From the IMG/VR virus record IMGVR_UViG_3300027734_000039: 64,000 bases of DNA; one strand, written 5' to 3'. The notes beneath the pieces are model-generated. The model was not told the DNA's origin, made no database searches, and was given only the letters and a program-made list of their open reading frames with translations. Below are positions 5,945-56,048 of this stretch, one piece after another. Numbering within the stretch: position 1 is the stretch's first letter; each line of letters opens with the position of its first letter. The stretch comes from a virus. The position numbers and the translations under genes are program-made.

Positions 5945-6036
5945 TGGTAGGGGATGCAGGATTCGAACCTGCTCGAGAACGCTAATCTGGCGCTAGAAGG
6001 TTTATAAATCCTCCCTGTGTACCAACACCATCCCCC
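5945..6036 (-). tRNA. Non-canonical tRNA-like RNA, UAU anticodon, long variable arm
   Basis: GGGGGAT(G)/(C)ATCCCCT-A-CCA acceptor; GTGT-TGGT-ACAC mini D-arm; TTTATAA loop; AGCGC/GCGTT V-arm; GGTTCGAATCC T-arm. Confidence 0.8.
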
Positions 6037-6041
6037 ATAAA

Positions 6042-6118
6042 TGGCGATCACTGATGGATTCGAACCATCGACCTACAGATTAGAAGTCTGTTGCTCTATC
6101 CAGCTGAGCTAAGTGACC
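6042..6118 (-). tRNA. tRNA-Arg(UCU)
   Basis: Canonical cloverleaf; ACAGA-CTTCTAA-TCTGT anticodon arm; encoded CCA. Confidence 0.95.
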
Positions 6119-6126
6119 ATTAGAAA

Positions 6127-6418
6127 GGGTGAGGGGATTCTGTTTCCAAGCTCCCCTCGAGCTCATGTTAGGCAGCTAGTGCCTGACGATATGCAACATT
6201 GTCGTTTGCATTTACGATTAGCTTTCGGTCTCCTCGCACCTTTACTACGCACGTCGATCCTATTTCGCCCCCATCAAAAGCACTCTGCCCTTTAACGTAT
6301 CTACAGGAACGTTGTGCGACCAATACGTCTCGCCGAACAACCAGAGTGCTTATGGTGGAGGCGGTGGGTACTGCCCCCACGTCCGAAACGTTTATTCCAT
6401 ACGCCTCAACGACCTAAG
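6127..6418 (-). ncRNA. ssrA: Circularly permuted two-piece tmRNA, tag ANDNVAYRQALAA*
   Basis: Acceptor piece ends ...CCGCCTCCACCA at 6353. An intervening hairpin follows, then the coding piece starts GGGGGCGAAATAGGATCGAC at 6272. Tag frame 6209-6168. Outer ends approximate. Confidence 0.92.
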
Positions 6419-6453
6419 CACAATATTTATAATACCCTACTATACCTTTAAAG

Positions 6454-7578
6454 TCAAGTTACAATCTTCAGTAGGATAGTGTTCTCGTTAATGCGATGAG
6501 CGAAAGTAGCTTCGTTCTTAAGATCGTCCATAAGTTTACGAAGAACGATCTTACCGCCATCAGAAACTCTCTTAACATACTCTTCTGGCTTGCGACCAGT
6601 TCGTTTGCTAACAGAGTTCTTTTCATCGTAACCGATAATACTCGTACCCTTTACCTGAAGACCGCCACGATCAAGAGCACGGAAAACAGTAAGGACTTTA
6701 TTCTTTGTATTGAACGTCCAAAGTTCCTGAGCACCGATAATTTTTTCTGGATTAACAGAAGCGATCTTGAAGGTGTTATCTTCTTTTTGGAACTTAAGAC
6801 CCTTCAACTTCTTTTCAACGGAAACTGCACGTGGCTTACGAGGAGTTCTAGTTTTCTTAGCTACGTTACCATAACGTTCGGAGTCTTCAATCAACTTACT
6901 AAAGAATTCCACTCGCTCACGAAGCTGTTTCTTTGTAAGACCCTTATACGCTTCTTTAAGTTGTTCGTCGGAACCTTCCAAAGCTTCGATAAGCTCGTCC
7001 AACCACGGAGCATATTTACTGACGATCATAGGAGCGTATAGGGCTGGCACTTCCTTTGCCTTGAGCCATTCATAAAGAGAAAACGTTTCGCCCCTATCGA
7101 TCAGCTCTTCAATATCGCCGATGATATCTTGGGCTTTCTCTTTAATACGATCTTGAATTGAAACTTTAGGAGTATCAACTTCTACGCTCTTATCTTCTTC
7201 CTTTGCCTTAGAAAGAGTTTCTTTAAGACGCTTTTCAAAATATGGTTTCGAGCTATCAGGAAGGTTATAGCCCTTCGACATCATCCTACAAACCCAAGCG
7301 GCAGTTGTAGGAATCCAAACGTCAGGAACCTTTTTAAATTTCTTATATTCGATTGTACGATTTGTATTCTTAAGATAAGTTTCGATATACTCGCGAGCAT
7401 CTGAATTGTCGCACATATAATTGTACCAATTCAAAGCACGTGCATAATCGCCTTCTGTAAGAGGCTTGGTGAAAACGGGCTCGTCGCCAAGATACTTCAA
7501 ATTAACAAGATACGCTTCGTTACGAGTAACGCGAGGCTTCTTTGTTTTTTTTGCAATAAGTCCAGGACGACGAGCCAT
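6454..7578 (-). CDS. Conserved hypothetical protein of T4-like phages
   Basis: 374-aa ORF in the operon direction; ALNWYNY, SVNPEKIIGAQELW and RINENTILL motifs. Confidence 0.7.
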   Translation of the reverse strand: MARRPGLIAKKTKKPRVTRNEAYLVNLKYLGDEPVFTKPLTEGDYARALNWYNYMCDNSDAREYIETYLKNTNRTIEYKKFKKVPDVWIPTTAAWVCRMMSKGYNLPDSSKPYFEKRLKETLSKAKEEDKSVEVDTPKVSIQDRIKEKAQDIIGDIEELIDRGETFSLYEWLKAKEVPALYAPMIVSKYAPWLDELIEALEGSDEQLKEAYKGLTKKQLRERVEFFSKLIEDSERYGNVAKKTRTPRKPRAVSVEKKLKGLKFQKEDNTFKIASVNPEKIIGAQELWTFNTKNKVLTVFRALDRGGLQVKGTSIIGYDEKNSVSKRTGRKPEEYVKRVSDGGKIVLRKLMDDLKNEATFAHRINENTILLKIVT

Positions 7579-7581
7579 GTA

Positions 7582-8136
7582 TCATTCACCTTCTGTGTTG
7601 TTATCCAAATTATCTAGATACAGTTCTACACAACGCTCGCGAACGTAACGATAAACAGTTTCTGCATCTTCACGACTATTGAGCTTGTCAATCATTTCGT
7701 AAAGACGAAGAAGCGAACCGTCAGTTCCTGCAGAAGCTTCTCGCCACTTAAAGCGATAGCCATACTGCTTTTCCATCGTTTCGTGCATCAACCGTTCTAG
7801 GGGCTGACGGTCTTCGGGGCTCGTAAAAAAATAACGGACCCAGATATCCGAGATATCAATATTGTTATGCTTGATATAATTACAAGCGTTGTGCTTGTTG
7901 ATCTTCAAGCAGTAGGTTCGACCGAAGATAGATTTACTTTCTCCGATATAACCAAGGTTGGCGAAGAGGATCTCTTCGGACTTATCAGCGGTCGTACAAA
8001 CCTGATATACACCAGAGTTGCCGTGCTCGTTTACAAGGTTTTCCATTCGCTTCGAAACTGGGTTATAGATGTCACTAAGACGAATCCATTCCAGTTTCGA
8101 AGTCAGGACTTTTTCGATATCCTTTTGGGAGATCAT
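7582..8136 (-). CDS. GIY-YIG-like protein
   Basis: SGVYQV...LGYIGES..GR and a downstream conserved E. Confidence 0.5.
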   Translation of the reverse strand: MISQKDIEKVLTSKLEWIRLSDIYNPVSKRMENLVNEHGNSGVYQVCTTADKSEEILFANLGYIGESKSIFGRTYCLKINKHNACNYIKHNNIDISDIWVRYFFTSPEDRQPLERLMHETMEKQYGYRFKWREASAGTDGSLLRLYEMIDKLNSREDAETVYRYVRERCVELYLDNLDNNTEGE

Positions 8137-9095: not shown

Positions 9096-9187
9096 AATAT
9101 CACCTATAGATTCGATAGCAGGGACCATTCCCTCAACTTATCATATACTTAGTATACGCTACTTTTATTTTAAAAACAAGTACTATT

Positions 9188-9608
9188 TTATTCTTTGAAG
9201 GTATAATAACTATCAACGACTTTACGGAGACGTTCTTCGGCACTCTCATAGAATTCTACATCTAAGATAGCACAGAGAAGATAGACGTAGTCGTCGGTAG
9301 AAAGATTATCTTTAGCGACCTGAAGATACTCGCCTCTTGTAAGAGGAACGATTACGACCTTATCGTTAAGAGTACTAGTTTCCCGACGAGAAAAGAAGTC
9401 GATTACATTACTCATAGGAGTCTTCACGGAAAGAACGAACGTCACGATACTCTACAGTAAGGTTCGGGTACTTCTCTTCAAGAGCCAGAACACCCCAGGT
9501 AGCTTTACCATAGGTCGGATACTCATGGCGTTCGATCAGGCGAGTTTTGTCGTACACCAGAACGATATGGCCATTCTCAGAGTCTTGCAGTCGTTTACGA
9601 TGTTTCAT
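9188..9608 (-). CDS. Two small early hypothetical proteins (9188-9415, 9408-9608)
   Basis: Overlapping ORFs downstream of an early promoter, with SD. Confidence 0.55.
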
Positions 9609-9693
9609 TATTAGTTGCTCCTCGCATTAATGATTATACTAAACGTTTCAATAAAAGTCAAGGTTTTTTAGAGGTTTCGGAAAAAATTTTCTA

Positions 9694-10029
9694 TTAGTCA
9701 ACAAACTTACTTTCCAAAGTAATAGTATCAACCACGCCATACTTCTGCAGTACTCGAATAACCGCCAACGCTGTGCCGAGGTCGTTACGCCCAGTTTCTC
9801 GCGCCCACTCTACTGACTTCTTAAGATCCTCGGTAGCTCTATCAGAGGCATAGATAGAACGATCAAGAAAGGCAGTAATTTCACCAACCCGTCGAATGTA
9901 ATTCAGTCCACCGTCAACAGCAATCGCCCCACACTTGCATTCGCGATAGTCATGACGAGTAGCTGACCATACTTCATCGCCACACTTGGCACAGGCAGCT
10001 GCATTCTGAAGGATCTTATTTTTTGACAT
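9694..10029 (-). CDS. Small Cys-rich zinc-binding phage protein
   Basis: CAKC..HDYRECKCG..VDGG motif. Confidence 0.7.
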   Translation of the reverse strand: MSKNKILQNAAACAKCGDEVWSATRHDYRECKCGAIAVDGGLNYIRRVGEITAFLDRSIYASDRATEDLKKSVEWARETGRNDLGTALAVIRVLQKYGVVDTITLESKFVD

Positions 10030-10306
10030 TATCATACTCCCTATTATGAAAGTCTACATCAGGCAATGTACTGTAGTCTGTAATCTTATTCGCTTCCCAG
10101 TCCTTAGCCCATATGACAGTATGCCGACTCTCTTCGTTATCATAAATTCGTGACTCGATAAGACCCTTAGTATCAATGAAGGGATTGCATGCCTTATGGA
10201 CAGCCTTTCCAATCGAATCAAAATCAAAGACGTGCTCCCCTGTGATCCAGTCATCCCCATTATAGGAGCGGGTCCAAAACGTTACCTCTAAGCGATACTT
10301 TGACAT
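10016..10306 (-). CDS. Hypothetical protein
   Basis: ATG start with AGGA SD; coupled to the next gene. Confidence 0.55.
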   Translation of the reverse strand: MSKYRLEVTFWTRSYNGDDWITGEHVFDFDSIGKAVHKACNPFIDTKGLIESRIYDNEESRHTVIWAKDWEANKITDYSTLPDVDFHNREYDNVKK

Positions 10307-10319
10307 TGTGTGGTATTCC

Positions 10320-10565
10320 TATTATAGTTTATTGAAGAAGTTCTAGAGACGATTTTTCTAGAGAGAAAATTTTTCGAATTCACGTTACTGGAAAAAAAAG
10401 GGGGGTGGGGGTATGGGGGTGTTTTTTGGCTTGGCGGGTTCTAGAGAAATCTTTGGGGGTCTTTTTAATAAGTAACTTTCCGCTACGCCACCACCCTACC
10501 GAGGGGACCCTGTCTTATTCTATGATACCCCCACCCCCATAGGGGGGGTCACCCCTCTAGAGAAT
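10320..10565. repeat. Non-coding element: four TCTAGAGA repeats, G/C-tract inverted repeat, A/T tracts
   Basis: TCTAGAGA at 10342, 10357, 10440 and 10556; GGGGGTGGGGGTAT (10401-10414) is the reverse complement of 10525-10538. Confidence 0.75.
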
Positions 10566-10949
10566 TCATAAGGGCGAAGAGACCAGCCATCAGCCCCACG
10601 AACACCAGCAGGGGACCGAAGAGAATGAAGCCCTCGTATGTTGACATTAGAACGTCTCCAGGGTATTATTGTGTCAGGATCTTAGCGATCGTCAGACCCA
10701 TGCCGAAGCCAGCGAGCCATGTCATTGCGAAGAGAGCGAATTCGATCTTTACGTCTTTCATTAGAGCACCATCATCACGCAGAAGGAGGGAGAGTTGTCG
10801 AAGAATTGTCCGTTGGCAGTGTAGATCACGAAGCCACAGATCTCGACGTCGAGATCGTCGGGGTGGGGGACGGCGAAGTACTCGGGAGCGTATTTCATGT
10901 TCGTTCCTTTCAATCTATAGACCCAGTATAGCTCGTCGGTCTTTTAAAA

Positions 10950-11192
10950 TCAAGGAGTCCAACCGTTCTCGTTGGACATGGAGCCGATGTAGTTCCCATG
11001 CGAATCATAGTTCGCGATGTTCGGGAAGCGGGACATGAAGTCGTCCAGCTCACCCTCGGCGATCTCAGCCTGAGCCAGATCAGCGGACTCGACCGCATCG
11101 AGGAGCTGCTCGTACTGGGCAACGAGCTCGATCAGGAGATACTTGGCATCGAGATCGAGGAGGGCAGTGCGTTGGGCTTGGGTGATAGTCAT
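10950..11192 (-). CDS. Early hypothetical protein
   Basis: Own promoter and AAGGA SD; acidic helical protein. Confidence 0.6.
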   Translation of the reverse strand: MTITQAQRTALLDLDAKYLLIELVAQYEQLLDAVESADLAQAEIAEGELDDFMSRFPNIANYDSHGNYIGSMSNENGWTP

Positions 11193-11318
11193 CTCAGTTC
11201 CTTTCGAATCAACTTATAACCCATCATACCGCGATCGTGTTTTAAAATCAAGTGGGGTGCAAGCGAGAACAGCATCGAAAGCACTCGCACCCAAACTTGA
11301 CTTTAAAAGGGTTTCGGC

Positions 11319-11837
11319 TTAAACTAGAGCCTTGACCTCGTCCTTTGACAGGAACTTAGGAGCCTTGAAGGAGTCATCGGCGAGGAGCGAGGCAACCTCT
11401 GCACGTGCTTCGTCAGCATCGTAGTCCTTAACACCGCGACCTTCGGAGCGAGCAACTTGATTGTACTTCTTCGTCTTCGCCGACACTTCCTTCATGCGAG
11501 CCAGATTCTTTGCCTTGATCTCGGCAAGATTGTCAGGCTCGACCTTCTTCGATGCCTTGCGGAAAGCAGGAGGCAGCACGTCCTTAAGCATCTTCTTGGC
11601 AGGGACTTCCTTCGTTTTTTTCGCCTTCGGAGCTGCTCGAGCATCCTTATACTCGCCAGGAAGAGCGATCGGAGCCAGACCGAACTTGGCACGACGAGCT
11701 TTGTTCTGCCAGTACAGAGCAGCATTCTTGGGCGAGCAGGTCGGAAACTGCTCGAGGAACTTCTTAACGAATTCCTGGTGGGTGATGTTCTTGTTGCCCT
11801 CGAAGAGCGAGAATGCGAGACCAGATTGAGTAGCCAT
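11319..11837 (-). CDS. Early basic (Lys/Ala-rich) hypothetical protein
   Basis: Own promoter and AAGGA SD; 172 aa. Confidence 0.65.
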   Translation of the reverse strand: MATQSGLAFSLFEGNKNITHQEFVKKFLEQFPTCSPKNAALYWQNKARRAKFGLAPIALPGEYKDARAAPKAKKTKEVPAKKMLKDVLPPAFRKASKKVEPDNLAEIKAKNLARMKEVSAKTKKYNQVARSEGRGVKDYDADEARAEVASLLADDSFKAPKFLSKDEVKALV

Positions 11838-11895
11838 TACATATTTCCTTCACAGTTGACTTATATACTTACTATACTCGATGTTCTTTTTAAAA

Positions 11896-12090
11896 TCAAG
11901 CCACTTTTTCCCACTCATCAGAATCACCGGAGAAAAACCACTCAACCCCATTTTCATCAGTAAGAACCATATCAGCGCCCTCAAACGCCTCATCATCAAA
12001 AGATTCAATCAGAGCACGAGCGGACTCAAACGTAAAATCGCCGTCAAGAACGACGTCATCAATTTCACCATAAACAGCAGAGAGTTTCAT
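11896..12090 (-). CDS. Early acidic hypothetical protein
   Basis: Own promoter and SD; very D/E-rich. Confidence 0.6.
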   Translation of the reverse strand: MKLSAVYGEIDDVVLDGDFTFESARALIESFDDEAFEGADMVLTDENGVEWFFSGDSDEWEKVA

Positions 12091-12146
12091 AGGATTTTCC
12101 TTTTCATCAACTTATATACTCAGTATAAGCGATGAATCTTTTAAAA

Positions 12147-12302
12147 TCAAGCGCCCTCTAGAAAATCTTCTATCTCCCAGAGAAAAGCGTAAAGCTCGTC
12201 GGTCGGCTCTAAGTAAATATCTACGGTCGGCCAATCAAAGCCGAGACCGATCGCTCGCTCTTTGTTCGTCTCTATCGCCTCTATGATGTTTGCTCGGGTC
12301 AT
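12147..12302 (-). CDS. Early hypothetical protein (51 aa, not in ORF track)
   Basis: MTRANIIEAIETNKERAIGLGFDWPTVDIYLEPTDELYAFLWEIEDFLEGA*; own promoter and AGGAG SD. Confidence 0.6.
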   Translation of the reverse strand: MTRANIIEAIETNKERAIGLGFDWPTVDIYLEPTDELYAFLWEIEDFLEGA

Positions 12303-12785
12303 ATCGTTCTCCTTATATACCTAGAATACTCTATCGGTCTTTTAAAATCAAGGACGAAAAACAGTGAATCCTGGTCTTGACTTTAAAAAGCTTTTACCGT
12401 ATAATGTAACTATGAAAGCGAATAGGCGATCGCCACCTCGTTATGGAGTATACTTCGGGGTAGTATATCTTTCTCGGATCGCTTTGTCTCTACTGCTCCT
12501 AACGTAAGTATATGCCAGCGATCTTTTAAATTCAAGGAGAATCTGCTGTTGCTTTTAAAAGGCGATCGGGGTAAAATTGGCTATAATTGGCTCTTGCGCC
12601 CTGAAAACTGCTGCTCGCTACTCGCTCTACTCGGGCGTGTCGTGGTCTGCTGCTGTCTTGGCTCGGCTTCTAGGATCTTGGCGGAGATGAAAAGAACAAC
12701 GCTGGCATTTCTAAAACGGGATTAATTACTCATTGAAAATACCAATGAATCCAGCACACTCTAAGCGTTTTTCCCGCTTACTCTA

Positions 12786-13421
12786 TTAGGTTTTTCCCGT
12801 AGCTTTATCCCATTCCTCAGCGGTAATCCCTGTCTTAATGAACTCTCTCGCGTCAGCGGAGACATTAGGCAGTGCTTCTTCTAGTAGTACGCGACCATCA
12901 CGCCAAGCGATTAGTCTACGATCAAAGTCATCTTGATCATATGCTTTTATCTGTAGTGTTCTGGTTATTCCAGTCAGTTCTGATGTTTTGGTAATGGTAG
13001 CCATATCGGAGATTACTGTTGGTCACTAGGGTTGGTCAGCGTTGTTGGTCAATGGGTTTGGCCAGCTTTGTTGGTAAACGGAAGAAAGTATTCAATGCCA
13101 TTGAGAACCAGATGCCAGAGGAGAATCCGTAGAGCGCCGAGGCTAGTGCGATATCAGAGTATAGGGCGACCGAGGCGAAGGCGATACAGAGTAGCGATTG
13201 TATAATGAACCAGAACATTCCTTATGTTTCCATCAGTCTATAGAGTTCGAACTCTTCTTGGTATCCGTCTTCGAAACCTAATTGCCAAGCATTGAACATA
13301 TCAGGTTCGTTGTGTAAATCATACGGGTTGTCAGGGAACATATCTAACTTCATATCGCCGAACTGAATAGATGTGAATCCTAAACGATAGGCGAGGCGGA
13401 CGAGCGTGTTCGAGAAATCAT
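12786..13421 (-). CDS. Three small early hypothetical proteins (12786-13004, 13036-13218 membrane, 13222-~13425)
   Basis: Consecutive minus-strand ORFs; the first has a REFIKTGITAEEW motif typical of small phage proteins. Confidence 0.5.
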
Positions 13422-13894
13422 GCATTGTTGTTCTCCTCTTCGTTCCACTCAAGCCAAGACTCATATTCCTGCTCAAGATATTCTAATACGTCATCGTTAC
13501 CAATGAAGTCACGCCAGTCTTCGTTGCTGAAGTCATACTCATAGCAATCGTCAGTACCGTTGTGATACTGGCCAGCAAAACACATTCCTGGCTCATGATA
13601 CAAAACATCCAACTCAAAGCCAAGCTCTTCGAGACGCTCATACGCAGCAATAGCAGGAGACCACGCCGTATCAAACCAACCACTGGCGCTCTTACCGTCC
13701 TCGACAATCGTCGCGTCGCCAGAAGAAATATCCCACTTCGTGCCCCACTTCTCGACCGAAGTGTTATAATCCCAGTCGCCATAAGGAATAAACGTCTCAA
13801 ACAAATTACCCTCGCGAACGCCAGCAACGAACTTAGCGATCATCTCTGGGTCTTCGTGGCTTACCGTGAATGAGTTAGAACACCAGTTAGGCAT
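13418..13894 (-). CDS. DUF1281/YubB ferredoxin-like domain protein
   Basis: MPNWCSN, WGTKWD, FDTAWSP and EPGMCFAG motifs. Confidence 0.85.
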   Translation of the reverse strand: MPNWCSNSFTVSHEDPEMIAKFVAGVREGNLFETFIPYGDWDYNTSVEKWGTKWDISSGDATIVEDGKSASGWFDTAWSPAIAAYERLEELGFELDVLYHEPGMCFAGQYHNGTDDCYEYDFSNEDWRDFIGNDDVLEYLEQEYESWLEWNEEENNNA

Positions 13895-13950
13895 AGTCGG
13901 CTCCTTGACTTCAGTTTATATACCTAATATACTACGTATCTGTTTTAAAA

Positions 13951-15121
13951 TCAACGGTCAATCGCAGCGAAAATAGTATCGCTACTAGCCTTCTCGATCT
14001 CGTTCGCGAGCGTATTCAAAACAACGTAGAGTGCAGTCGTTACGGCGATCTGCTCTGACTTATGACAGCGACCGATTACATCAGACGCATACTGAAATGC
14101 TTCGGTGAGCGACTCGCGCTCGGCGAACAAACCATGGCGGATCGCCTTAGCCAACTCTTGATTCGTCATATCTCTTCTCCTCAACTTATCTTATAACGTA
14201 TTATACCGCGACTTCGTTTTAAAATCAACACTTGACTTTAAAAGATTAATCGGTCATGCTTCTAATCGTATCGAGGCGACGGTTCATATTCTCTGTGTAG
14301 CTGAGAGCCGTAAAGGAAGAAACCGATGGAGTAACCCAGACACGATCGTCGCGACGAGTAAATGCGAGCGAAAAGCCACCAGTCGAGATAGACGTAGTGT
14401 CACGGTCGTTCGCGTAGCGATAGGCGAAGCCAGTGATCTCTGATTCCAACTCACGCCAGTTCGCGAACTTCTCTCGCGCCGACTCATTCATAATCCACAC
14501 AGCCTTCGCCGTGTTTTCCATATCGTAGTCGCTGAATTCAACTGAGCCATTATACATCATACCATCTCCTCGATATCGTTGTAGACCGCCTGATAGATAT
14601 TCTCTTTCTTATCCATGATGTAGATATAATCGTAGCCACCGAAGTCGCCCCAGCGAATGTAGCGATGAAGCCAGTCGCGAGCTTCTGGTAGCCAGTCGAA
14701 CTCCTCGAGCAAATTCTGTGATGCGAGCTTGTAGTTGCCCCAGATCTGATACATCACATCACTCCCCAAGAGACAGAGTCAACGTTGAATAGAATCATCT
14801 CATATCCCATAGCCTCGAACATTGCCATAGCGATCTTCTTGCTGACGTATTCGCGACGGATATGACGACCGTCTTTGAAAGTAACTTCGTAGTAGTATTT
14901 CTTCATTAGTTGAGCTCCTCTTCAAGAGCGTTATCGTCTTCGCTCTCGAGCCAGCTAGACGTAAAGCCAAGATGCTCGAAGCCAAAGAAGTCGTTACGCT
15001 TGACAAAGCACTTCACTTCGTCTTCGGTCAGGAAATTCAGCAGATCAAGAATGAGAATGTCTTTGTCGAACATTCCTTCTTCGACCAGTTCGAGCATTCG
15101 ATTCGTAAACTCGCGAGCCAT
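13951..15121 (-). CDS. Run of small early hypothetical proteins (13951-14169, 14246-14560, 14557-14754, 14906-15121)
   Basis: Tandem ORFs with GAGGAG SDs behind repeated promoters; starts approximate. Confidence 0.55.
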
Positions 15122-15173
15122 AATCCGTCTCCTCATTATCATATACGTAGTATAGCGTATTCTTCTTTTAAAA

Positions 15174-15533
15174 TCAAGCAGCCTGAGCGATATCGATATG
15201 AGAACATTTCTTACGGTAGCCAAAGCCAACACACGAACAGGACCAGCGATTGTTCTGCTCGGTTACGACATACTGCTTGACTTTAAAAGAACGAGAGCGT
15301 AGATTAGTAGAATGGGCGACGGGGATCTGCCAACCACAGACGATATCTTCCTTACGCAAAACACGGAAGGGAAAGTTCGCGTCGCCTGTAGTCAGACAGA
15401 AAGAGTCGTCGCCCACCCATTTCGGCTTCGGCGCGACTTCGCCCTCATATTCGTTGAACTCAGCGATAGGGTACGCGAAACGATCGCGTCGCTCATACAT
15501 AGAGTTCTTAACACGAATGCGAAGGCGAGTCAT
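15174..15533 (-). CDS. SWIM zinc-finger protein
   Basis: WSCSCVGFGYRKKCSH motif. Confidence 0.75.
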   Translation of the reverse strand: MTRLRIRVKNSMYERRDRFAYPIAEFNEYEGEVAPKPKWVGDDSFCLTTGDANFPFRVLRKEDIVCGWQIPVAHSTNLRSRSFKVKQYVVTEQNNRWSCSCVGFGYRKKCSHIDIAQAA

Positions 15534-15542
15534 TCTTACCTC

Positions 15543-16403
15543 TTAGTTCTTACAGCAGGTAATCTTAGCAATACGAGCCCAGTCGTCGCCCTGCTTACGC
15601 AACGAACCGAGTTTAATAGCCATACGCAGCGACAGTTCGCGAAGCTTCTCTGAATGAGTTTCGATGAACGTGATAACATCGCTACGCTCGGCAAAGGAAA
15701 GATCATCGAGCAATCCTTGCTTGATGACCTGACGGATACGAACCAGATAGTCACGACGAGTTTTCATCGCGAGATCAATGTAGTGGCTACGCGAGACAAG
15801 AGCCTGAAGATGCGGAGCCAGTTTATGACCACGATCGATCATAGCATCAAAGTCGTAGTTCGAGATAAAGATAATCGTACCGTTGAAGTCAAAGCTGCGA
15901 GGAATGCGCACAGCAGTTTCTTCGTCGATCAAACCACCTTCAGACAACCAAGAGACGCGACGACGATCGGTCGTGTCACAAACTGCTTTAAGAAGATTAA
16001 GAGAGACGTCATCAAAGAAGATCGCGTCGGCGTCGTCGAAAACGATAACCTGACCTGCTTCGCGGTACTGATAGAGCAACTTAACAAGACCAGTCGCACG
16101 AACGTAGCCCTTAACGATCGTGTGGTTGACTTCATTCGGGTCCCACTCATGGAGACGTTTCTCAACGGTAAACGACTTACCGAGACCAGCAGGACCAGAG
16201 ACGATAAGAGCACGAGCATTACCGACGACACAAGCTTCGGTAAGAACGTCAAGAATTTCGAAACGATCGGCGATACGCGCATCGACTTCGGCATCGGTTT
16301 CGCGCGACACTTCTGGCTCTTGCATCACTTTGATAGCAGCCATACGTTCGGCAGCAGAATTACGAGCGGCACGGAAGCCAGACTTAGGAATTCCTCTAGG
16401 CAT
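15543..16403 (-). CDS. AAA+ ATPase
   Basis: Walker A GPAGLGKS, Walker B VIVFDD, IIFISN and ALVSR. Confidence 0.85.
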   Translation of the reverse strand: MPRGIPKSGFRAARNSAAERMAAIKVMQEPEVSRETDAEVDARIADRFEILDVLTEACVVGNARALIVSGPAGLGKSFTVEKRLHEWDPNEVNHTIVKGYVRATGLVKLLYQYREAGQVIVFDDADAIFFDDVSLNLLKAVCDTTDRRRVSWLSEGGLIDEETAVRIPRSFDFNGTIIFISNYDFDAMIDRGHKLAPHLQALVSRSHYIDLAMKTRRDYLVRIRQVIKQGLLDDLSFAERSDVITFIETHSEKLRELSLRMAIKLGSLRKQGDDWARIAKITCCKN

Positions 16404-17331: not shown

Positions 17332-17390
17332 TTGACTTTTGAACAGTTGGTAGGTATAATCAATTGTTGACGATGAACAGGAGAACAAAG

Positions 17391-17594
17391 ATGACTGGTG
17401 AATTCCTCCCTGCTGACGCGACAAGCGCGAAGCAAGAAATTGTTGCTGAGTTGTATCAGCGACTCCATGATGTTCGTCGTTCTTTGGCTATCAAAGTTCC
17501 GCAGTACGACGAGTTTGAGATTGGTATTAGCTGTCGGTTGGCCAACGAAGAAGCTTGGTTGGTCGAGTTTCTTGATAAGATTGAGAGGAGCTGA
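17391..17594 (+). CDS. Early hypothetical protein
   Basis: AGGAG SD downstream of a TTGACT..TATAAT promoter. Confidence 0.55.
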   Translation: MTGEFLPADATSAKQEIVAELYQRLHDVRRSLAIKVPQYDEFEIGISCRLANEEAWLVEFLDKIERS

Positions 17595-17596
17595 AG

Positions 17597-17716
17597 ATGC
17601 GTAACGTAATCGCGAAGGACGTTCACTCCCCGAAGTATCGTCCGCGAGTTGTTCGCTCTAAGAAGGGCAAAGGTTCTTACGACCGTAAGAAAGTTGGTAA
17701 AAATGTTGGTCATTGA
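17597..17716 (+). CDS. arfA: ArfA-like alternative ribosome-rescue factor (39 aa, not in ORF track)
   Basis: MRNVIAKDVHSPKYRPRVVRSKKGKGSYDRKKVGKNVGH* with GAGGAG SD; aligns by eye with the ArfA core [23 protein letters not shown]. Confidence 0.8.
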   Translation: MRNVIAKDVHSPKYRPRVVRSKKGKGSYDRKKVGKNVGH

Positions 17717-18595: not shown

Positions 18596-18669
18596 TGGGG
18601 GATAGTTCAATGGTAGAACTACCGACTTTGACTCGGTCAATCTTGGTTCGAATCCAGGTCCCCCAGCCA
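18596..18669 (+). tRNA. tRNA-Gln(UUG)
   Basis: TGGGGGA/TCCCCCA acceptor; ACCGA-CTTTGAC-TCGGT; encoded CCA. Confidence 0.95.
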
Positions 18670-19513: not shown

Positions 19514-19813
19514 TTACTTTTTCTCTTCTACTTTACCTTCGTCAGCTTTCTTCTTAGCTTCATCAAGAGTTTTATATAATGAGTTCACGTTCTTTTGGCA
19601 CTCTGTATTCTTTGAATGAAGCTCAACAAGCAGCTTTGCGACTTGCGCATCAGTCAACGTATCAGGGTTCGGGAATCGCCTTACGTTTTGACAGTAGAAC
19701 AACGAGCGGTCTGGTACGTACACCTGAATCTCCGTCTTCGTTATCACCTGTCGTGGTTTTGATGCGCATGCGGTCAATCCGAGCATAGCAACTACAACAA
19801 TAAGTATTTTCAT
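19514..19813 (-). CDS. Outer-membrane spanin (Rz1-like lipoprotein)
   Basis: Lipobox LTAC; Cys pair; overlaps the i-spanin stop. Confidence 0.75.
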   Translation of the reverse strand: MKILIVVVAMLGLTACASKPRQVITKTEIQVYVPDRSLFYCQNVRRFPNPDTLTDAQVAKLLVELHSKNTECQKNVNSLYKTLDEAKKKADEGKVEEKK

Positions 19814-20154
19814 TTCGGAGCATCCTTTAATTTAGCTACTGTTTTCTTCAAAACGTCAGAGGCTGGTCTATCAACAGTTTCTTTTGATTCGATTACAGTG
19901 TTGATTTCTTCCATCTTGCCTTTGAATGCTTTTTTATCGGCAGCGTTTTCGGCTTCTATCTCTGCCTGTCTCTTAGCCATGGCAGCAAGCTTTTCTTTCA
20001 TAGCTTGTTGATCTTTTTCGTTTTGCTCGAGTTGTGCCTGATTATATTCTAGTAGAGCTTCGCGCTCGATACCTTTACGCCAGTTATAATAGAATGCGGT
20101 AAGAGCTCCGAATAGGAATATTCCACCGATGATATATAATTGAATACGACCCAT
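19810..20154 (-). CDS. Inner-membrane spanin (Rz-like)
   Basis: N-terminal TM plus coiled coil; late-promoter-like ACTAAATA upstream. Confidence 0.75.
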   Translation of the reverse strand: MGRIQLYIIGGIFLFGALTAFYYNWRKGIEREALLEYNQAQLEQNEKDQQAMKEKLAAMAKRQAEIEAENAADKKAFKGKMEEINTVIESKETVDRPASDVLKKTVAKLKDAPK

Positions 20155-23010: not shown

Positions 23011-23065
23011 AACTTGACTTTGATGTGAAAGTCAGGTAATATATAATGTGTTTCGTGGAGGGATT

Positions 23066-45705: not shown

Positions 45706-45771
45706 ACTGTTTGACTTTTAACCGACCATACAGTATAATTACTTTGTGGCTTTGATGATTAAAGGTTGAAC

Positions 45772-46794
45772 ATGGATTGGTTGCAGCACAAGTATATTGG
45801 TATTGTATCGAACAGACTTGATAAGTTTAAGCGTAAAGGACCGAATCTTTGGAACTTTCGTTGTCCTATCTGTGGCGATTCCGAAACCAATAGAAACAAA
45901 GCCCGAGCTTATATTTACGAAAAACAAGGTAAGAGTATGTTCCACTGTCATAACTGTGGGGCTACCTCTTCTGTATCTAATTTTATTAAATCTATTGATC
46001 AAAGTGCGTATAACGAGATGCAGCTGGAAAAGCTGCAGGGTAATAAAACTCCTGAACAAACAGATTATGAAAACTTTGTAAATAAGATGAAGAAGCCAGT
46101 CTTTATGAAGTCTGGTCCCTTGAAAGGTTTGAAGAAAGTATCTCAGCTTTCTCCTGACCATAGAACAAAGAAGTTTGTTGATGCAAGACGGATTCCAACT
46201 ATATATCACGCCAAACTATTTAATTGTCCTAATTTTAAGCAATTTACTAACTCTTTGCTTCCTGATAAATTTGATAGTGCTAGCATTGAAAGAGATGAGT
46301 GTCGCCTTCTTATACCATTCTTGGACGCTAATAAAAATGTTCATGCGTACCAAGGTCGTGCGTTGGGTGCTTCGGCTGTTAAGTACATCACCATCGTTCT
46401 TGATGAAACAGTTCCAAAAGTTTATGGACTGGATACAGTTAACTTTAATCGAAAAACATACGTATTCGAAGGACCCATCGACTCTATGTTTGTTCCTAAT
46501 TCGATTGCAACTGCAGGTGGTGATCTTGTATCTGCAATCGGGTCTTTTGATAAAGAGAATCTCGTCATTGTTTACGATAACGAGCCGAGAAACAAAGAAA
46601 CTGTGAAAAAACTTGACAAAGCTATCCTTCAGGGTTATAATGTATGTATCTGGCCAGATAACCTAGAACATAAAGACGTTAACGATATGATCCTTGCAGG
46701 ACTGACGAGCGACTTCATTAAACATATTATCGATACCAATACGCATAAAGATCTCGCAGCGAAACTGGCTCTTACTAAATGGGGTAAAGTATGA
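45772..46794 (+). CDS. gp61: DNA primase gp61
   Basis: FRCPICGDS..HCHNCG; EGPIDS; DNEPRN; KDVNDM. Confidence 0.96.
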   Translation: MDWLQHKYIGIVSNRLDKFKRKGPNLWNFRCPICGDSETNRNKARAYIYEKQGKSMFHCHNCGATSSVSNFIKSIDQSAYNEMQLEKLQGNKTPEQTDYENFVNKMKKPVFMKSGPLKGLKKVSQLSPDHRTKKFVDARRIPTIYHAKLFNCPNFKQFTNSLLPDKFDSASIERDECRLLIPFLDANKNVHAYQGRALGASAVKYITIVLDETVPKVYGLDTVNFNRKTYVFEGPIDSMFVPNSIATAGGDLVSAIGSFDKENLVIVYDNEPRNKETVKKLDKAILQGYNVCIWPDNLEHKDVNDMILAGLTSDFIKHIIDTNTHKDLAAKLALTKWGKV

Positions 46795-52268: not shown

Positions 52269-52298
52269 CCATAAATATGGGGGAAAAAGGAGTACCCC

Positions 52299-52697
52299 AT
52301 GTGGTTTTATAATAATGTCGAATTTACTGACATTGGTGAGTATGTAGGATTTGTATATCTAATTACTAACCTCACCAATGATCGGAAATACATTGGCAAG
52401 AAAAATTTTTACTTTAGTAAGACAAGAACTATCAAAGGTAAGCGAAAGCGAACCAAAGTTGAGTCTGATTGGAAAACTTATTACGGCTCTAATAAAGAGC
52501 TTCAAGAAGATGTTGAAGCTTTAGGAGCAAACAATTTTAAGAGAGAAATCTTAAAATTATGTAAGAGTAAAGGTGAGTTTGGTTACTTCGAAGCCAAGTA
52601 TCAATTCGAAAATAATGTCCTAGAAACCGATGAATACTACAATTCATGGATATCTTGTAAAATTCACAAGAAGCACTTGACTTTTATAAAGGTTTAG
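52299..52697 (+). CDS. GIY-YIG endonuclease (endonuclease II/DenA-like position)
   Basis: GFVYLITN..KYIGKK..YYGS..FKREIL..YYN; follows nrdB. Confidence 0.85.
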   Translation: MWFYNNVEFTDIGEYVGFVYLITNLTNDRKYIGKKNFYFSKTRTIKGKRKRTKVESDWKTYYGSNKELQEDVEALGANNFKREILKLCKSKGEFGYFEAKYQFENNVLETDEYYNSWISCKIHKKHLTFIKV

Positions 52698-52713
52698 GGT
52701 ATTATAATAATAT

Positions 52714-52796
52714 GGGCACGTGGAGAAATTGGTAAACTCAGGAGACTTAAAATCTCCCGCTTCGGCTTGTCGGTTCGAGTCCGACCGTGCCCACCA
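52714..52796 (+). tRNA. tRNA-Leu(UAA)
   Basis: GGAGA-CTTAAAA-TCTCC; variable arm; encoded CCA. Confidence 0.95.
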
Positions 52797-52814
52797 ATTT
52801 AACAGGAGTATAGT

Positions 52815-52901
52815 ATGGCACATCCTCATAAGAATCGCCCTCGTAAGGGACGTCGCAAGATTGGTTCGAAGAAGCGCAAGGCTCGTAACAAGCGTAAGTA
52901 A
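52815..52901 (+). CDS. Highly basic 28-aa micropeptide (not in ORF track)
   Basis: AGGAG SD; MAHPHKNRPRKGRRKIGSKKRKARNKRK; TAATAA stop. Confidence 0.65.
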   Translation: MAHPHKNRPRKGRRKIGSKKRKARNKRK

Positions 52902-52908
52902 TAAAATC

Positions 52909-52983
52909 GCGGGTGTGGTATAAGGGTTGTGCCCTAGCCTTCCAAGCTAGTGAAGACCAGTTCGAGTCTGGCCATCCGCTCCA
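52909..52983 (+). tRNA. tRNA-Gly(UCC)
   Basis: CTAGC-CTTCCAA-GCTAG; U discriminator; encoded CCA. Confidence 0.93.
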
Positions 52984-52998
52984 AAATCAAGGTGCATA

Positions 52999-53475: not shown

Positions 53476-53487
53476 TAGGAGATATAA

Positions 53488-54186
53488 ATGTTTTATACAG
53501 ATACAAATACAGTAACAAGAGAACAGTATGATCTTGGTTTGCGCCAGTTTATGCTTGGTGTCTATAATAACATGACGCTTGCTTTGGCTATTAGTGGTCT
53601 CGTTTCAGTTGGCATTTATATGAGCCCAACACTCATGGCTGCTATTTGGGGAACGCCTCTCAAGTGGGTTGTTATTTTTCTTCCGCTTGCTATGTCTTTC
53701 GGCTTTGCTTTTCTTTTCGAAAAGATGAATGCTCGACAAGCTCAATTGGCATTGTATGTTTTTGCAGCAGCAATGGGTCTTAGTTTGAGTTCTATCTTTG
53801 CTATCTATAAACTCGGTAGCATCGGTCAAGTGTTCTTTATCTCGGCTGCTACATTCGGCGCTGCTTCGCTTTATGGATATACGACAAAAGCAGATCTTAC
53901 TAAACTCGGTTCATTCCTCATTATGGGTGCACTTGGTTTGGTCATCGCTGGTCTTATTAATATTTTCCTTCAGAGCTCGGTATTCGCTTTTGTAATCAGC
54001 TGTATTGCTGTTCTAATCTTCACTGGTTTGACTGCATATGATACTCAGCAATTGAAGTCAATCTATGACTTTACAGTTGAAGAAGAGCAAGAAAAGCTAG
54101 GCATCTATGGCGCACTTCAGCTCTACATGGACTTCATCAATATCTTCGTCAATCTTCTTCAGCTTATCGGCGAAAAGAAAGATTGA
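53488..54186 (+). CDS. Bax inhibitor-1/YccA family membrane protein
   Basis: About 7 TMs; YGYTTKADL, FTGLTAYDTQ and GALQLYMDFINIF motifs. Confidence 0.92.
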   Translation: MFYTDTNTVTREQYDLGLRQFMLGVYNNMTLALAISGLVSVGIYMSPTLMAAIWGTPLKWVVIFLPLAMSFGFAFLFEKMNARQAQLALYVFAAAMGLSLSSIFAIYKLGSIGQVFFISAATFGAASLYGYTTKADLTKLGSFLIMGALGLVIAGLINIFLQSSVFAFVISCIAVLIFTGLTAYDTQQLKSIYDFTVEEEQEKLGIYGALQLYMDFINIFVNLLQLIGEKKD

Positions 54187-54193
54187 GGAGTAA

Positions 54194-54269
54194 GCCCGAG
54201 TAGCTCAATGGTTAGAGCCATTCGCTCATAACGGATTGGTTGCAGGTTCGAGTCCTGCCTCGGGCACCA
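54194..54269 (+). tRNA. tRNA(CAU), probably Ile2 (Met not excluded)
   Basis: CTCATAA loop; AGCTCAATGGTTAGAGCC D-arm resembling alphaproteobacterial Ile2. Confidence 0.85.
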
Positions 54270-54277
54270 CTTTTATC

Positions 54278-54631
54278 ATGAAAAAAACACTCTTAATATT
54301 CCTTCTCCCTGCATTAACGGCGTGTCAATCTACAGCAGATTCGGCAAACCTAAATAACCTTACCACTTCGTCTTGGTATAGTAGTGGTCGTTTGACCGCA
54401 TCAGGTCAGCGTTTCGATCCAAACGGGCATACTGTCGCTCATAGAACCCTCCCGTTTGGAACTAAAATCAAACTGACCAATCCAGATAATGGTAGGTCTA
54501 TAGTTGCTACGGTAAACGACAGGGGACCATTTATACGTGGTGTCGGGTTAGACGTTTCTAGAGGCGTAGCTCAACACCTCAATTTTATTAAAAAAGGCAA
54601 AACCAAACTTAATATAGAGGTGTTGAATTAA
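54278..54631 (+). CDS. rlpA: RlpA-like lytic transglycosylase lipoprotein
   Basis: Lipobox LTAC; SWY..TASGQRF..AHRTLPFGT..VNDRGP..LDVS. Confidence 0.9.
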   Translation: MKKTLLIFLLPALTACQSTADSANLNNLTTSSWYSSGRLTASGQRFDPNGHTVAHRTLPFGTKIKLTNPDNGRSIVATVNDRGPFIRGVGLDVSRGVAQHLNFIKKGKTKLNIEVLN

Positions 54632-54674
54632 ATTATATTACTCTTCGTAGCAAAAAAATAAAAAGGAAAGAGTA

Positions 54675-55280
54675 ATGAAAAAACTTATATTTTTACTAGT
54701 AGCAATGCTAGTTGGTTTTGGTAGTATAACTACTGCCGAAGCTAGACCAAAAGATAAGCAATATCATTATAGTAAAGTGCAAAAAAAGAGTAAACCTGTG
54801 AAAGTTGTCCAAAAACAAAATAACGTTATTAGACAACCAGTATATGATGAAGATACAGTAGCTGGTTATTGGAATGCGGAATATAATAGAAAAAAACCGC
54901 CATTAGAAGGACCAGTTGAAAAGGCAGCGAGAAAGTTCGTGGCTTCTAGCCAGGATTTAACAGAAAAAGCTTCTCGCCATATGGGTGCATCTGCAAACCA
55001 ACTTGGATTACCAAGAAGTTTATGGTGCGCTGATTTTATGAATATGCTCGTCGGAGGTACTGACCGTAGAGCTATTTCTTATGCTAAACGTGGAACTAAA
55101 GCTTATCATGGTTGTGTTAACTGTATTGCAGTCACAACTCGTGAAGGTGGTGCTCACGTAGGTGTAGTATCTGGCTACGACGAAAAAGGCAACCCTATTA
55201 TTGTTTCTGGTAATCATAACAGAAAAGTTGGGGTAGCCACTTATGATAAGCGTAGAGTTATAGCTTATCGTTATATCTAA
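54675..55280 (+). CDS. Secreted CHAP/NlpC-like cysteine hydrolase
   Basis: Signal peptide; WCADF (catalytic Cys), HVG and SGN. Confidence 0.7.
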   Translation: MKKLIFLLVAMLVGFGSITTAEARPKDKQYHYSKVQKKSKPVKVVQKQNNVIRQPVYDEDTVAGYWNAEYNRKKPPLEGPVEKAARKFVASSQDLTEKASRHMGASANQLGLPRSLWCADFMNMLVGGTDRRAISYAKRGTKAYHGCVNCIAVTTREGGAHVGVVSGYDEKGNPIIVSGNHNRKVGVATYDKRRVIAYRYI

Positions 55281-55315
55281 AAAAAAATGGGGAGGATTAA
55301 TTTTCTCCCCATTTA
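55280..55315 (+). terminator. Intrinsic terminator
   Basis: AAATGGGGAG..CTCCCCATTT hairpin. Confidence 0.65.
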
Positions 55316-55484
55316 CCTTGGAGATGAAAATGAATGAAACTATTATCAAAACTTCCGACCTTAATTGGTGTGTAGATATCCTCAAACGTATCGATGAAAT
55401 CCTTAGAAAGCCAAACGTAAGCGAGGCTGATCTTGCGCAGGTTCATTGGTTAGTCAAACAGGGTTTGAAAGTGGAGCGTGAAGA

Positions 55485-56048
55485 ATGAGCGATAAAGAAG
55501 ATAAGATTTCAAATGTTCCGTCTTTGTGCGATCATCACATGATGATGTTTTTCAAAGACTTCGATTCTAGTGCAGCTTCTGATGGTATTGAATTCATCAT
55601 AGCTAGAAATCTTATGAAAAAAGATAAACCTAAAATGATTAAGATGTTGATCAACTCTCCAGGAGGGGAAGTTGCTTCGGCATTTGCTCTTATTGATACT
55701 ATGAAGGGGTCAAGGATTCCTATATATACTTACGGTCTTGGTGAAATCGCTAGCTGTGGTCTTATGACTTTTATTGCTGGTGAAAAAGGACATCGTTACA
55801 TTACTCGTAACACTGCTATCCTTTCACACCAATATAGCTGGGGCTCTTGGGGTAAAGAACACGAACTAATGGCTCGTGTTAAAGAATTTAATAATACACA
55901 AACGAGAATCGTAGAGCATTATAAGAAGTGCACTGGTCTTAATGAAAAAGACATTAAGAAGTATTTGCTTCCACCTGAAGACGTTTGGCTTACTGCCAAG
56001 GAAGCTGTGAAGTATGGTATTGCTGATGAAATCGTTGACTTTTACTAA
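55485..56048 (+). CDS. clpP: ClpP-like protease
   Basis: INSPGG, IASCG (Ser), HQ (His), DVWLTAKEA (Asp) and YGIADEI. Confidence 0.92.
   Translation: MSDKEDKISNVPSLCDHHMMMFFKDFDSSAASDGIEFIIARNLMKKDKPKMIKMLINSPGGEVASAFALIDTMKGSRIPIYTYGLGEIASCGLMTFIAGEKGHRYITRNTAILSHQYSWGSWGKEHELMARVKEFNNTQTRIVEHYKKCTGLNEKDIKKYLLPPEDVWLTAKEAVKYGIADEIVDFY

Follow-up and report, generated by a model that had tools for sequence, protein, structure and literature searches.

Ribosome-rescue genes in a T4-like freshwater phage: a two-piece tmRNA, a mini-ArfA and a ClpP-like peptidase as a probable loose translation-support set

Do a transfer-messenger RNA (tmRNA), an ArfA protein and a ClpP-like peptidase encoded by one phage form a single ribosome-rescue system, or are they accessory genes that happen to share a genome? 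The question is raised by the IMG/VR virus record IMGVR_UViG_3300027734_000039, of which a stretch of 64,000 nucleotides (the window, meaning this whole stretch) was analysed, with the genes of interest between positions 5,945 and 56,048. Replication genes and source metagenomes identify the source contig as a T4-like freshwater myovirus. An earlier note, made from the sequence alone, had described a distributed toolkit for ribosome rescue and translation quality control directed against host defence RNases. We favour, with a probability of about 0.6, a loose translation-support and quality-control set in accessory regions, made up of single genes of which relatives inherit differing combinations. 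The presence, integrity, conservation and distribution of these genes can be read directly from the genomes. Three of them stand at the centre of the argument:

6128-6461, minus strand: two-piece (circularly permuted) alpha-type tmRNA (RF01849, RF04321, ARAGORN)
17597-17716, plus strand: mini-ArfA of 39 amino acids with its own TGA stop and the Shine-Dalgarno sequence GAGGAG (PF03889)
55485-56048, plus strand: stand-alone serine peptidase of the ClpP family (S14), 187 amino acids (PF00574)

The window was compared gene by gene with two complete relatives, G001 (173 kb) and G034 (168 kb, with terminal repeats; gp43 60% identical to that of the window). A third complete genome, the 210-kb T4-like phage G016, is distant (gp43 39% identical).

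The tmRNA that had been noticed at 6.1-6.4 kb is complete, with full-length matches above the cut-offs to the alphaproteobacterial tmRNA model RF01849 (122.2 bits, cut-off 50, model positions 1-355 of 355) and the permuted tmRNA model RF04321 (109.9 bits, cut-off 47, model positions 1-213 of 213). The acceptor piece, with CCACCA at its end, precedes the coding piece, which begins GGGGGCGAAAUAGG; upstream of it, CGCCUCCACCA provides the pairs G1-C, G2-C and G3.U, giving an acceptor stem GGGGGCG/CGCCTCC with G3.U70 that is followed by ACCA. Both ARAGORN and a reading of the sequence give the tag as ANDNVAYRQALAA followed by a stop. Its ANDN start and LAA end match alphaproteobacterial tags, and ANDN...LAA tags are recognised by SspB and ClpX in Caulobacter. 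Orthologous tmRNAs of relatives (G001, G005, G034) encode the tags ANDNNASRLALAA and ANDNAPLVMALAA, which end in ALAA too, and in all three the tmRNA keeps its tRNA-Arg neighbour.

ArfA had been placed at 17.6 kb, and the position held: the true gene is the 39-residue plus-strand open reading frame (ORF), whereas the 85-residue minus-strand ORF at 17456-17713, tried as ArfA, matches no family. The short protein scores 37.2 bits against PF03889 (cut-off 25.5), with residues 5-32 on profile positions 14-41 of 44, and can be aligned to residues 14-48 of Escherichia coli ArfA in ribosome-structure chains 5u4i_w and 5mdw_6 (E = 8e-5). Both the HxPx(F/Y)RxRV segment and the channel-binding motif KGKGSYxRK are present. 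Across 17 phage sequences the motif core K23 G24. G26 S27.. R30 is invariant or nearly so, while K25 varies between K and R and Y28 between Y and F. Orthologues occur in G001, G005, G034 and G016, and a metagenomic protein of 39 residues is 97% identical to that of the window. The phage thus encodes both routes of non-stop rescue, as the earlier note had maintained: the tmRNA is complete, and arfA ends in a stop codon of its own. Two further features adjoin the gene:

17391-17594, plus strand: ORF of 67 amino acids with no assigned function, its stop 2 nt before the arfA ATG
18596-18669, plus strand: tRNA-Gln(TTG), found by ARAGORN and Rfam, about 0.9 kb downstream of arfA

The neighbourhood of arfA and tRNA-Gln is kept in G005 and G001. 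The upstream ORF has no Pfam or PHROG family (Pfam was searched with the longer TTG-start form, 17364-17594), and as a partner of ArfA it was set aside, being without homologue in G034, G001 and G016.

The stop codon matters for regulation. In the window, arfA has an in-frame TGA after codon 39, after which the next promoter follows; a terminator scan of the region returned nothing inside or directly downstream of the gene, and no stem-loop was evident by reading. All 80 viral ArfA ORFs from IMG/VR that were examined have their own stop codon, and 76 of the 80 end 0-17 residues past KGKGSYxR. Active RNase III-truncated ArfA of E. coli ends at or beyond that point. Because it ends in its own stop codon, the ArfA of the window should lie outside tmRNA control, and for the same reason the bacterial circuit, which confines ArfA synthesis to times of tmRNA failure, cannot apply to the viral proteins, which appear from their sequences to be built for constitutive activity.

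Such genes are widespread among viruses. A degenerate-pattern scan of IMG/VR found at least 190 viral contigs with an ArfA relative, and by tblastn homologues came to light in isolates that infect Pelagibacter, Caulobacter, Brevundimonas, Erythrobacter, Citromicrobium, Roseobacter, Ralstonia and Microcystis, only two of which carry an ArfA annotation. The isolated carriers mostly infect Alphaproteobacteria, a class in which a survey of 15,259 bacterial genomes recorded arfA in 0 of 2,376 genomes (PMC11633108). Likewise, a Caulobacter control genome gave no ArfA match; Caulobacter phage Cr30 carries the gene. Since the sequenced Alphaproteobacteria are without arfA, the phage gene would represent an added pathway and not a copy of a host gene.

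Counting ArfA required some care. A phage ArfA profile was built and searched beside the Pfam model, because the latter undercounts phage ArfAs (that of G034 reaches only 23.6 bits, under the cut-off of 25.5). The phage profile also picked up forms without GKGS, which are DUF7230-like and were excluded from the ArfA counts. This sister form (RNKKKYDRKR) is found in G035, G004, G036, G014 and Agrobacterium phage Atu_ph07. DUF7230 may be derived from ArfA, since the Atu_ph07 copy scores just below the DUF7230 cut-off (26.4 bits against 27) and the ArfA of G034 weakly matches both families. Separately, G016 encodes at 19623-19883 (minus strand) an ORF of 111 amino acids whose similarity to the RF-1 (GGQ) domain is weak (33.6 bits, cut-off 35); it could be an ArfB- or peptidyl-tRNA-hydrolase-like protein.

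The third gene, at 55.5 kb, is a ClpP-family member with the Ser-His-Asp motifs that had been noticed there: it matches PF00574 with 114.5 bits (7e-33), and Ser90, His115 and Asp166 occupy the catalytic positions when it is aligned with the ClpP structure 6hwm. Among solved ClpP structures the best match reaches only 69 bits. A role as prohead protease was rejected, as the protein stays below the cut-off of the head-maturation model NF045542 (69.9 bits against 120) and relatives have a separate T4 gp21-type prohead protease (Peptidase_S77 in G034, G001, G016 and G033). An ORF of 54 amino acids that overlaps the start of the gene (55324-55488) was tried as a partner and rejected, since only about 6 of 80 relatives have it upstream of ClpP. 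The peptidase may work with host Clp ATPases (ClpX or ClpA). Relatives of it (E <= 1e-3) are encoded on at least 424 viral contigs, and identity among the 80 best is 72-86%, a conservation at about the level of the polymerase. The closest homologues among GenBank phages are those of Phosso, BUCT-ZZ01 and RsoM2USA, all three of which have a two-piece tmRNA, and Phosso and BUCT-ZZ01 combine tmRNA and ClpP homologue without ArfA. There is thus a hint that this ClpP-like subfamily travels with tmRNA. In the Sinorhizobium jumbo phage Phosso (112164-118679) the homologue, 55% identical, adjoins a MutT-like gene, an IF-1 gene and a tRNA-Leu; the same phage also encodes two Clp-type ATPases of 431 and 795 amino acids.

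How often do these genes occur together? Within the clade, ten contigs at least 60% complete, the window counted, have the following content:

Window: tmRNA, ArfA, ClpP and Bax1-I (a membrane protein described below) present
G034: tmRNA, ArfA, ClpP and Bax1-I present
G001: tmRNA, ArfA and Bax1-I present, no ClpP
G002 (62% complete): tmRNA present, no ClpP, a partial ArfA profile match of 33.7 bits that was not counted, no Bax1-I
G031, G032 and G033: tmRNA and ClpP present, no ArfA
G035 and G036: tmRNA and ClpP present, DUF7230-like form only
G037: ClpP present, neither tmRNA nor ArfA

In total, tmRNA is found in 9/10, the ClpP-like gene in 8/10 and canonical ArfA in 3/10. Outside this table, the trio of tmRNA, ArfA and ClpP-like gene that G034 has is seen again in G016 and in the Ralstonia phage RsoM2USA. 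G016 has a divergent tmRNA (44 bits; tag ending in ALAA by eye), 12 tRNAs, ArfA and a 52%-identical ClpP, all within 18.5 kb of its 210 kb (p of about 0.02 for three loci); it is the only genome in which the parts are clustered. RsoM2USA carries ArfA and has its ClpP homologue 1 kb from the tmRNA.

An association emerges among large genomes. Among ArfA-carrying phages of at least 150 kb, tmRNA is present in 8 of 9 (P <= 2e-3 even at a background of 36%); G001, G034, G016, G017, RsoM2USA, Kikimora, XM05 and the Erythrobacter phage vB_EliS-L02 have it and Cr30 does not, and the window was left out of this count since it had generated the hypothesis. We read this as a real tendency of large ArfA-carrying phages to carry tmRNA too. 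Among the nine ArfA phages taken from GenBank, a two-piece tmRNA is present in three (RsoM2USA, XM05, Kikimora), and the one-piece model RF00023 gave nothing over its cut-off in any of them; the six tmRNA-less ones include every small phage. Two candidate carriers, V10 and RcXuper, were rejected, having no Pfam match and weak, partial scores against the phage profile (23.4 and 21.7 bits). The co-occurrence counts are thus divided: tmRNA in 8/9 large ArfA phages and in 3/3 phages with the closest ClpP homologues, and ArfA in only 1/6 GenBank phages selected for tmRNA (vB_EliS-L02).

Around the three core genes lie further parts of the proposed toolkit:

5945-6037, minus strand: non-canonical tRNA-like gene of 92 nt with anticodon UAU, long variable arm and encoded CCA (relaxed ARAGORN)
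6042-6118, minus strand: tRNA-Arg(TCT), found by ARAGORN and Rfam (71 bits), directly downstream of the tmRNA
21073-21597, plus strand: small heat-shock protein, Hsp20/IbpA-like (PF00011, 56.3 bits, cut-off 20.8, 3.7e-15)
52714-52796, plus strand: tRNA-Leu(TAA) (ARAGORN, Rfam)
52815-52901, plus strand: basic micropeptide of 28 amino acids, 54% Lys+Arg, with AGGAG in front, between tRNA-Leu and tRNA-Gly
52909-52983, plus strand: tRNA-Gly(TCC) (ARAGORN, Rfam)
53488-54186, plus strand: Bax1-I (BI-1/YccA-family) seven-helix membrane protein (PF01027)
54194-54269, plus strand: tRNA-Met(CAT) (ARAGORN, Rfam)

All of these types had been listed in the earlier note. The membrane protein belongs to the Bax1-I family (188.8 bits against PF01027, cut-off 34.1, positions 1-206 of 207, 1.3e-55), whereas 41.6 bits against the YccA equivalog NF007765 (cut-off 353) do not support orthology to E. 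coli YccA; it has no PHROG family. It is 59-62% identical in G001 and G034, where the gene lies between nrdA and nrdB (157399-158085 and 156190-156843, respectively); in the window it follows nrdB. The Hsp20 assignment stands at family level, its score against the IbpA equivalog being below the cut-off (105 bits against 212), and the protein is 69-75% identical in G034 and G001 and 40% in G016.

The five canonical tRNAs (Arg-TCT, Gln-TTG, Leu-TAA, Gly-TCC, Met-CAT) include readers of the A/U-ending codons AGA, UUA, GGA and CAA, which account for 17-55% of use within their codon families. The aberrant one is called 'Ile(tat)' by ARAGORN at the relaxed threshold only, reaches 35.8 bits against the Rfam tRNA-Sec model (under the cut-off of 47) and has no counterpart at the syntenic site of G034 or G001. 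G016 has, at 66459-66553 (minus strand), a well-formed long-arm tRNA(UAU) of 95 nt with a 7-nt anticodon loop CUUAUAC and an encoded CCA; long arms in bacteria are a mark of Ser, Leu, Tyr and Sec tRNAs, and a long-arm AUA reader is unusual. In G001, ARAGORN reports a tRNA of 78 nt with anticodon UCA ('SeC') inside a tRNA array (109305-109382), possibly a UGA-reading suppressor tRNA.

The micropeptide, which begins MAHPHKNRPRKGRRK, is 96% identical in G034 (28 of 28 residues aligned) and 83% in G001, and DNA polymerase is less conserved (60-69%). Its constant neighbours are tRNA-Leu(TAA) and tRNA-Met. Neither Pfam nor NCBIfam has a family that matches it, and tblastn against phages gave no match, for which the low-complexity filter is probably the reason. 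The peptide could be ribosome- or nucleic-acid-binding. Directly upstream of the unit formed by tRNA-Leu, micropeptide and tRNA-Gly is a gene for a SegE-type GIY-YIG homing endonuclease (52299-52697, plus strand).

Three of the units share a promoter type:

6429-6457, minus strand: sigma-70-like promoter TTGACT-N17-TATTAT, before the tmRNA
17332-17360, plus strand: sigma-70-like promoter TTGACT-N17-TATAAT, of the two-gene unit ending in arfA
52677-52705, plus strand: sigma-70-like promoter TTGACT-N17-TATTAT, before the tRNA-Leu/micropeptide/tRNA-Gly unit

The window contains 11 copies of the pattern TTGACT-N17-TATNNT where 0.28 would be expected, and the -35 box of the tmRNA promoter is kept in G001. 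Since this promoter is common to the three units and also occurs upstream of uvsX and of the primase gene, the tmRNA, arfA and tRNA-Leu/micropeptide units are probably transcribed by the host RNA polymerase in the early or middle phase. The T4-type late promoter TATAAATA is uninformative (7 sites where 4.9 are expected). A small part of the stretch is represented in one metatranscriptome run, by a 151-nt contig identical to 17404-17554 and a few others at 10.5-11.7 and 15.7-16.2 kb; they are no proof of transcription because RNA libraries can contain DNA. Read depth over the bin that holds the tmRNA is inflated by the conserved tRNA-Arg.

The remainder of the window is that of a T4-like phage, with ThyX and NrdA/NrdB in addition to the replication genes:

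3453-4361: gp32
4440-5024: gp59 loader
23048-25528: gp43 DNA polymerase
25795-26850: UvsX
26947-28353: gp41 helicase
45766-46794: gp61 primase

Cyanomyophages are the nearest isolates, with a polymerase identity of <50%, and megablast of 16 kb of the window against GenBank phages returned zero matches. IMG/VR holds many relatives, with contigs whose polymerases are 65-83% identical to that of the window, and the stretch occurs in publicly available freshwater metagenomes that stem from several studies. Further host-like accessory genes encode a ferritin-like protein (37292-37723), a glutaredoxin (56410-56685), an S-adenosylmethionine decarboxylase (57239-57604) and a peroxiredoxin (57618-58229). 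They are followed by a run of sugar-nucleotide genes (58246-62560, plus strand; methyltransferase, cytidylyltransferase-like protein, HAD/PNK-type phosphatase, GT1 glycosyltransferase, GHMP kinase and SIS-domain isomerase) that is akin to the glycero-manno-heptose nucleotide pathway and is kept in part in G034. Between the tmRNA and arfA, a stretch at about 9600-16400 has a G+C content of 46-47% against about 39%, with dense small ORFs behind repeated TTGACT promoters, almost none of which has a homologue in G034, G001 or G016, and a P-loop ATPase of 286 amino acids (15543-16403). This stretch looks like a lineage-specific early-gene island.

Much of this weighs against the genes working together. 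The parts lie at 6, 17.6, 21, 53 and 55.5 kb, spread over 50 kb and both strands and interspersed with genes of replication and structural type. They also separate among phages: within the clade ClpP is missing from G001 and ArfA from G031-G033, the 338-kb phage G017 has tmRNA and ArfA without ClpP or Bax1-I, and Melnitz, Cp1R7A-A1 and RcSimone-Hastad have tmRNA without ArfA. Conversely, ArfA occurs without tmRNA in HTVC034P, HTVC027P, CRP-212, RXM, Mwe-JY26, Cr30 and G027, and alone in small phages of 31-58 kb. No pair of genes is obligatory and the genes are unlinked; given that G001 is without ClpP, G033 without ArfA and small phages have ArfA alone, this is not a linked or obligately co-inherited module. 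As tmRNA is near-universal in the clade, co-occurrence there carries no information, and elsewhere the phage cases are not independent, genome size, host class and shared ancestry confounding the associations. Partner proteins are likewise missing: SmpB was not found in the complete genomes G001, G016 and G017, in RsoM2USA and XM05, or among the scanned ORFs of the window, an RF-1/RF-2 domain was not found in G034, G001, G017 or RsoM2USA, and the complete relatives G033 and G034 have no Clp-type (AAA_2) ATPase. The ClpP-like protein reaches 73-103 bits against curated NCBIfam ClpP models with cut-offs of 228-361 (the best 102.8 against 228; TIGR00493 72.8 against 308.6), and its first 17 residues (MSDKEDKISNVPSLCDH) appear unlike the axial-loop N-terminus of ClpP in a comparison made without alignment. 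Given these low scores and the apparently non-canonical N-terminus, a role as a degrader of tagged proteins is at most tentative, and its coupling to tag-directed degradation is probably the weakest step of the scheme. Hsp20, Bax1-I and the tRNAs are accessory genes of a general kind, not tied to rescue in particular, and the 151-nt contig, in the ORF upstream, is the sole RNA-library trace near arfA.

The same dispersal and separation would be expected if there were no functional connection at all, that is, if unrelated accessory genes had gathered in plastic regions of large T4-like genomes and their joint presence meant only that large phages of aquatic or alphaproteobacterial hosts collect host-like genes. 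The lone ArfA of the small phages points in this direction, as do the ferritin, glutaredoxin, peroxiredoxin, AdoMet decarboxylase, heptose-pathway-like enzymes and ThyX encoded in the same regions. Against this explanation stand the tmRNA of nearly all large ArfA-bearing phages, the recurrence of the triple set down to a gp43 identity of 39% and in RsoM2USA, the tight cluster in G016 and the 1-kb spacing of ClpP and tmRNA in RsoM2USA. We regard it as rather unlikely, though a serious contender. By the same evidence, the claim that the genes form one system stands only in part: tmRNA, ArfA and ClpP do recur together, but they are unlinked and separable.

For the loose set of translation-support genes that we prefer, we infer the biochemical steps, and any benefit to the phage, as follows. 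The complete two-piece tmRNA would be transcribed from its host-type (sigma-70-like) promoter, charged by the host alanyl-tRNA synthetase, as suggested by G3.U70, and delivered by host SmpB and EF-Tu, adding ANDNVAYRQALAA to peptides stuck on stop-less mRNAs. Mini-ArfA would be made from an ordinary mRNA and, unlike in E. coli, would not be held down by tmRNA; the ArfA/RF2 route would free the peptide untagged. Running in parallel, the two routes could raise rescue capacity while host and phage messages are cut during infection. The ClpP-like peptidase, Hsp20 and Bax1-I would handle proteins and not ribosomes, and the tRNAs would provide for A/U-ending codons, as they do in other large phages.

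A stronger version seems doubtful to us, namely that mini-ArfA and tmRNA, sometimes with the divergent ClpP, are a co-selected two-route module of large aquatic and soil phages that supplies the ArfA/RF2 pathway lacking in the host class and measurably shields phage translation against message truncation, RNase-based abortive infection included. Narrower still is the purpose proposed in the earlier note, a counter-defence kit against RelE/MazF-type toxins, anticodon nucleases and collateral CRISPR RNases. Both rescue routes, many tRNAs and apparently early-type promoters would suit it, and ArfA adds a route absent from the likely host class; nothing in the sequence, however, links them to defence systems, although no search for an anti-defence context was made, the breakdown of host mRNA by the phage itself would give the same benefit, and the tRNAs fit the common pattern of A/U-ending codon supply, so that we consider this purpose improbable. 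Hardly credible is an offensive use, in which tmRNA and the ClpP-like protein degrade host or surplus proteins for amino acids or state sensing while ArfA spares phage proteins: the Melnitz authors raise the possibility (PMC9004378), Al-Shayeb et al. mention a state-sensing role (PMC7162821) and the ClpP subfamily and tmRNA do occur together in Phosso, BUCT-ZZ01, RsoM2USA and the T4-like clade, but tmRNA cannot choose host proteins, its only targets being ribosomes that stand at the 3' end of a truncated mRNA, the ClpP-like protein is absent from the tmRNA-bearing G001 and G002, and G033 and G034 encode no Clp ATPase or adaptor.

Most worth following is the viral mini-ArfA, which is widespread, apparently constitutive and, in large phages, tends to occur alongside tmRNA. 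As it stands, the window offers a well-documented example and distribution data for a known theme, translation genes in large phages. If ArfA and tmRNA truly cooperate, phages would top up ribosome rescue, an essential bacterial function, and in Alphaproteobacteria they would import a pathway that is missing from the host. The supply of available ribosomes during mRNA decay would then be a directly testable limiting factor of infection, and the phage proteins would be natural minimal ArfA variants of 36-42 amino acids that work without non-stop-mRNA control. Culturable systems are at hand in Caulobacter phage Cr30 and in Brevundimonas and Erythrobacter phages.

The combination had been thought undescribed, which holds only for tmRNA together with ArfA, of which no treatment in phages was found in the literature; phage tmRNA, tmRNA with ClpXP and an annotated phage ArfA are all in print. 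Genes for tmRNA were reported in 402 of 18,146 phage genomes (2.3%), and of 133 unique phage tmRNA structures 53 were two-piece, 50 of them from marine or aquatic phages (PMC9004378). The two-piece tmRNA of aquatic T4-like phages is thus already published (PMC9004378), and phage tmRNA appears also in PMC7162821. The tmRNA of the OM43 phage Melnitz and of pelagimyophages (PMC9004378) is the closest parallel to that of the window: it too is a permuted alpha-type tmRNA of an aquatic T4-like phage, lies directly behind an early-type promoter, is not accompanied by a phage SmpB and encodes a tag that starts with ANDN and ends in LAA. Melnitz differs in having no ArfA, whereas the window has ArfA and the ClpP-like gene, and, unlike the Melnitz type, the window has no glutamine riboswitch match at Rfam's threshold.

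With E. coli ArfA (YhdL; PF03889; 5MDV, 5U4I, 5H5U), which lines the empty mRNA channel and contacts RF2, the window protein shares the core HxPxYRxRV...KKGKGSYxRK. It has only 39 residues, equivalent to about residues 12-50 of the E. coli protein, and the latter is made from an RNase III-cut non-stop mRNA, whereas the phage gene has its own stop codon and should not be repressed by tmRNA. Short ArfA homologues are also found in other phages of Alphaproteobacteria, Citromicrobium phage vB_CbaS-RXM (g10; PMC8953757) and Brevundimonas phage Kikimora (KIKIMORA_04590), the former without and the latter with tmRNA; both proteins were aligned with that of the window. Both are one-line annotations; one phage ArfA receives a single sentence in a paper (PMC8953757), and a search of the literature found no discussion of phage ArfA past an annotation line. 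DUF7230 (PF23876) shares the N-terminal pattern NP(I/V)A..L....(Y/F)..R.V, and DUF7230-like forms occupy the same genomic niche in G035, G036, G004, G014 and Atu_ph07. They read KKKYDRKR without GKGS, whereas the window protein reads KKGKGSYDRK and matches ArfA and not DUF7230.

Bacterial ClpP and the ClpP-related head-maturation proteases (MEROPS S14) have the full-length ClpP fold domain and the Ser-His-Asp triad in common with the peptidase of the window, which differs in scoring below both curated cut-offs. On a broader scale, huge phages carry translation and rescue genes (PMC7162821), and phage G has been reported to carry tmRNA and ClpXP 'to monitor translation' (PMC12484599); ArfA is unmentioned in both papers. 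The shared theme is the maintenance or redirection of translation by tRNAs, tmRNA, release or rescue factors and Clp proteases. The phage described here differs in being a mid-sized T4-like phage with SmpB, release factor and ClpX not seen in the complete relatives examined, and in adding a mini-ArfA to this theme.

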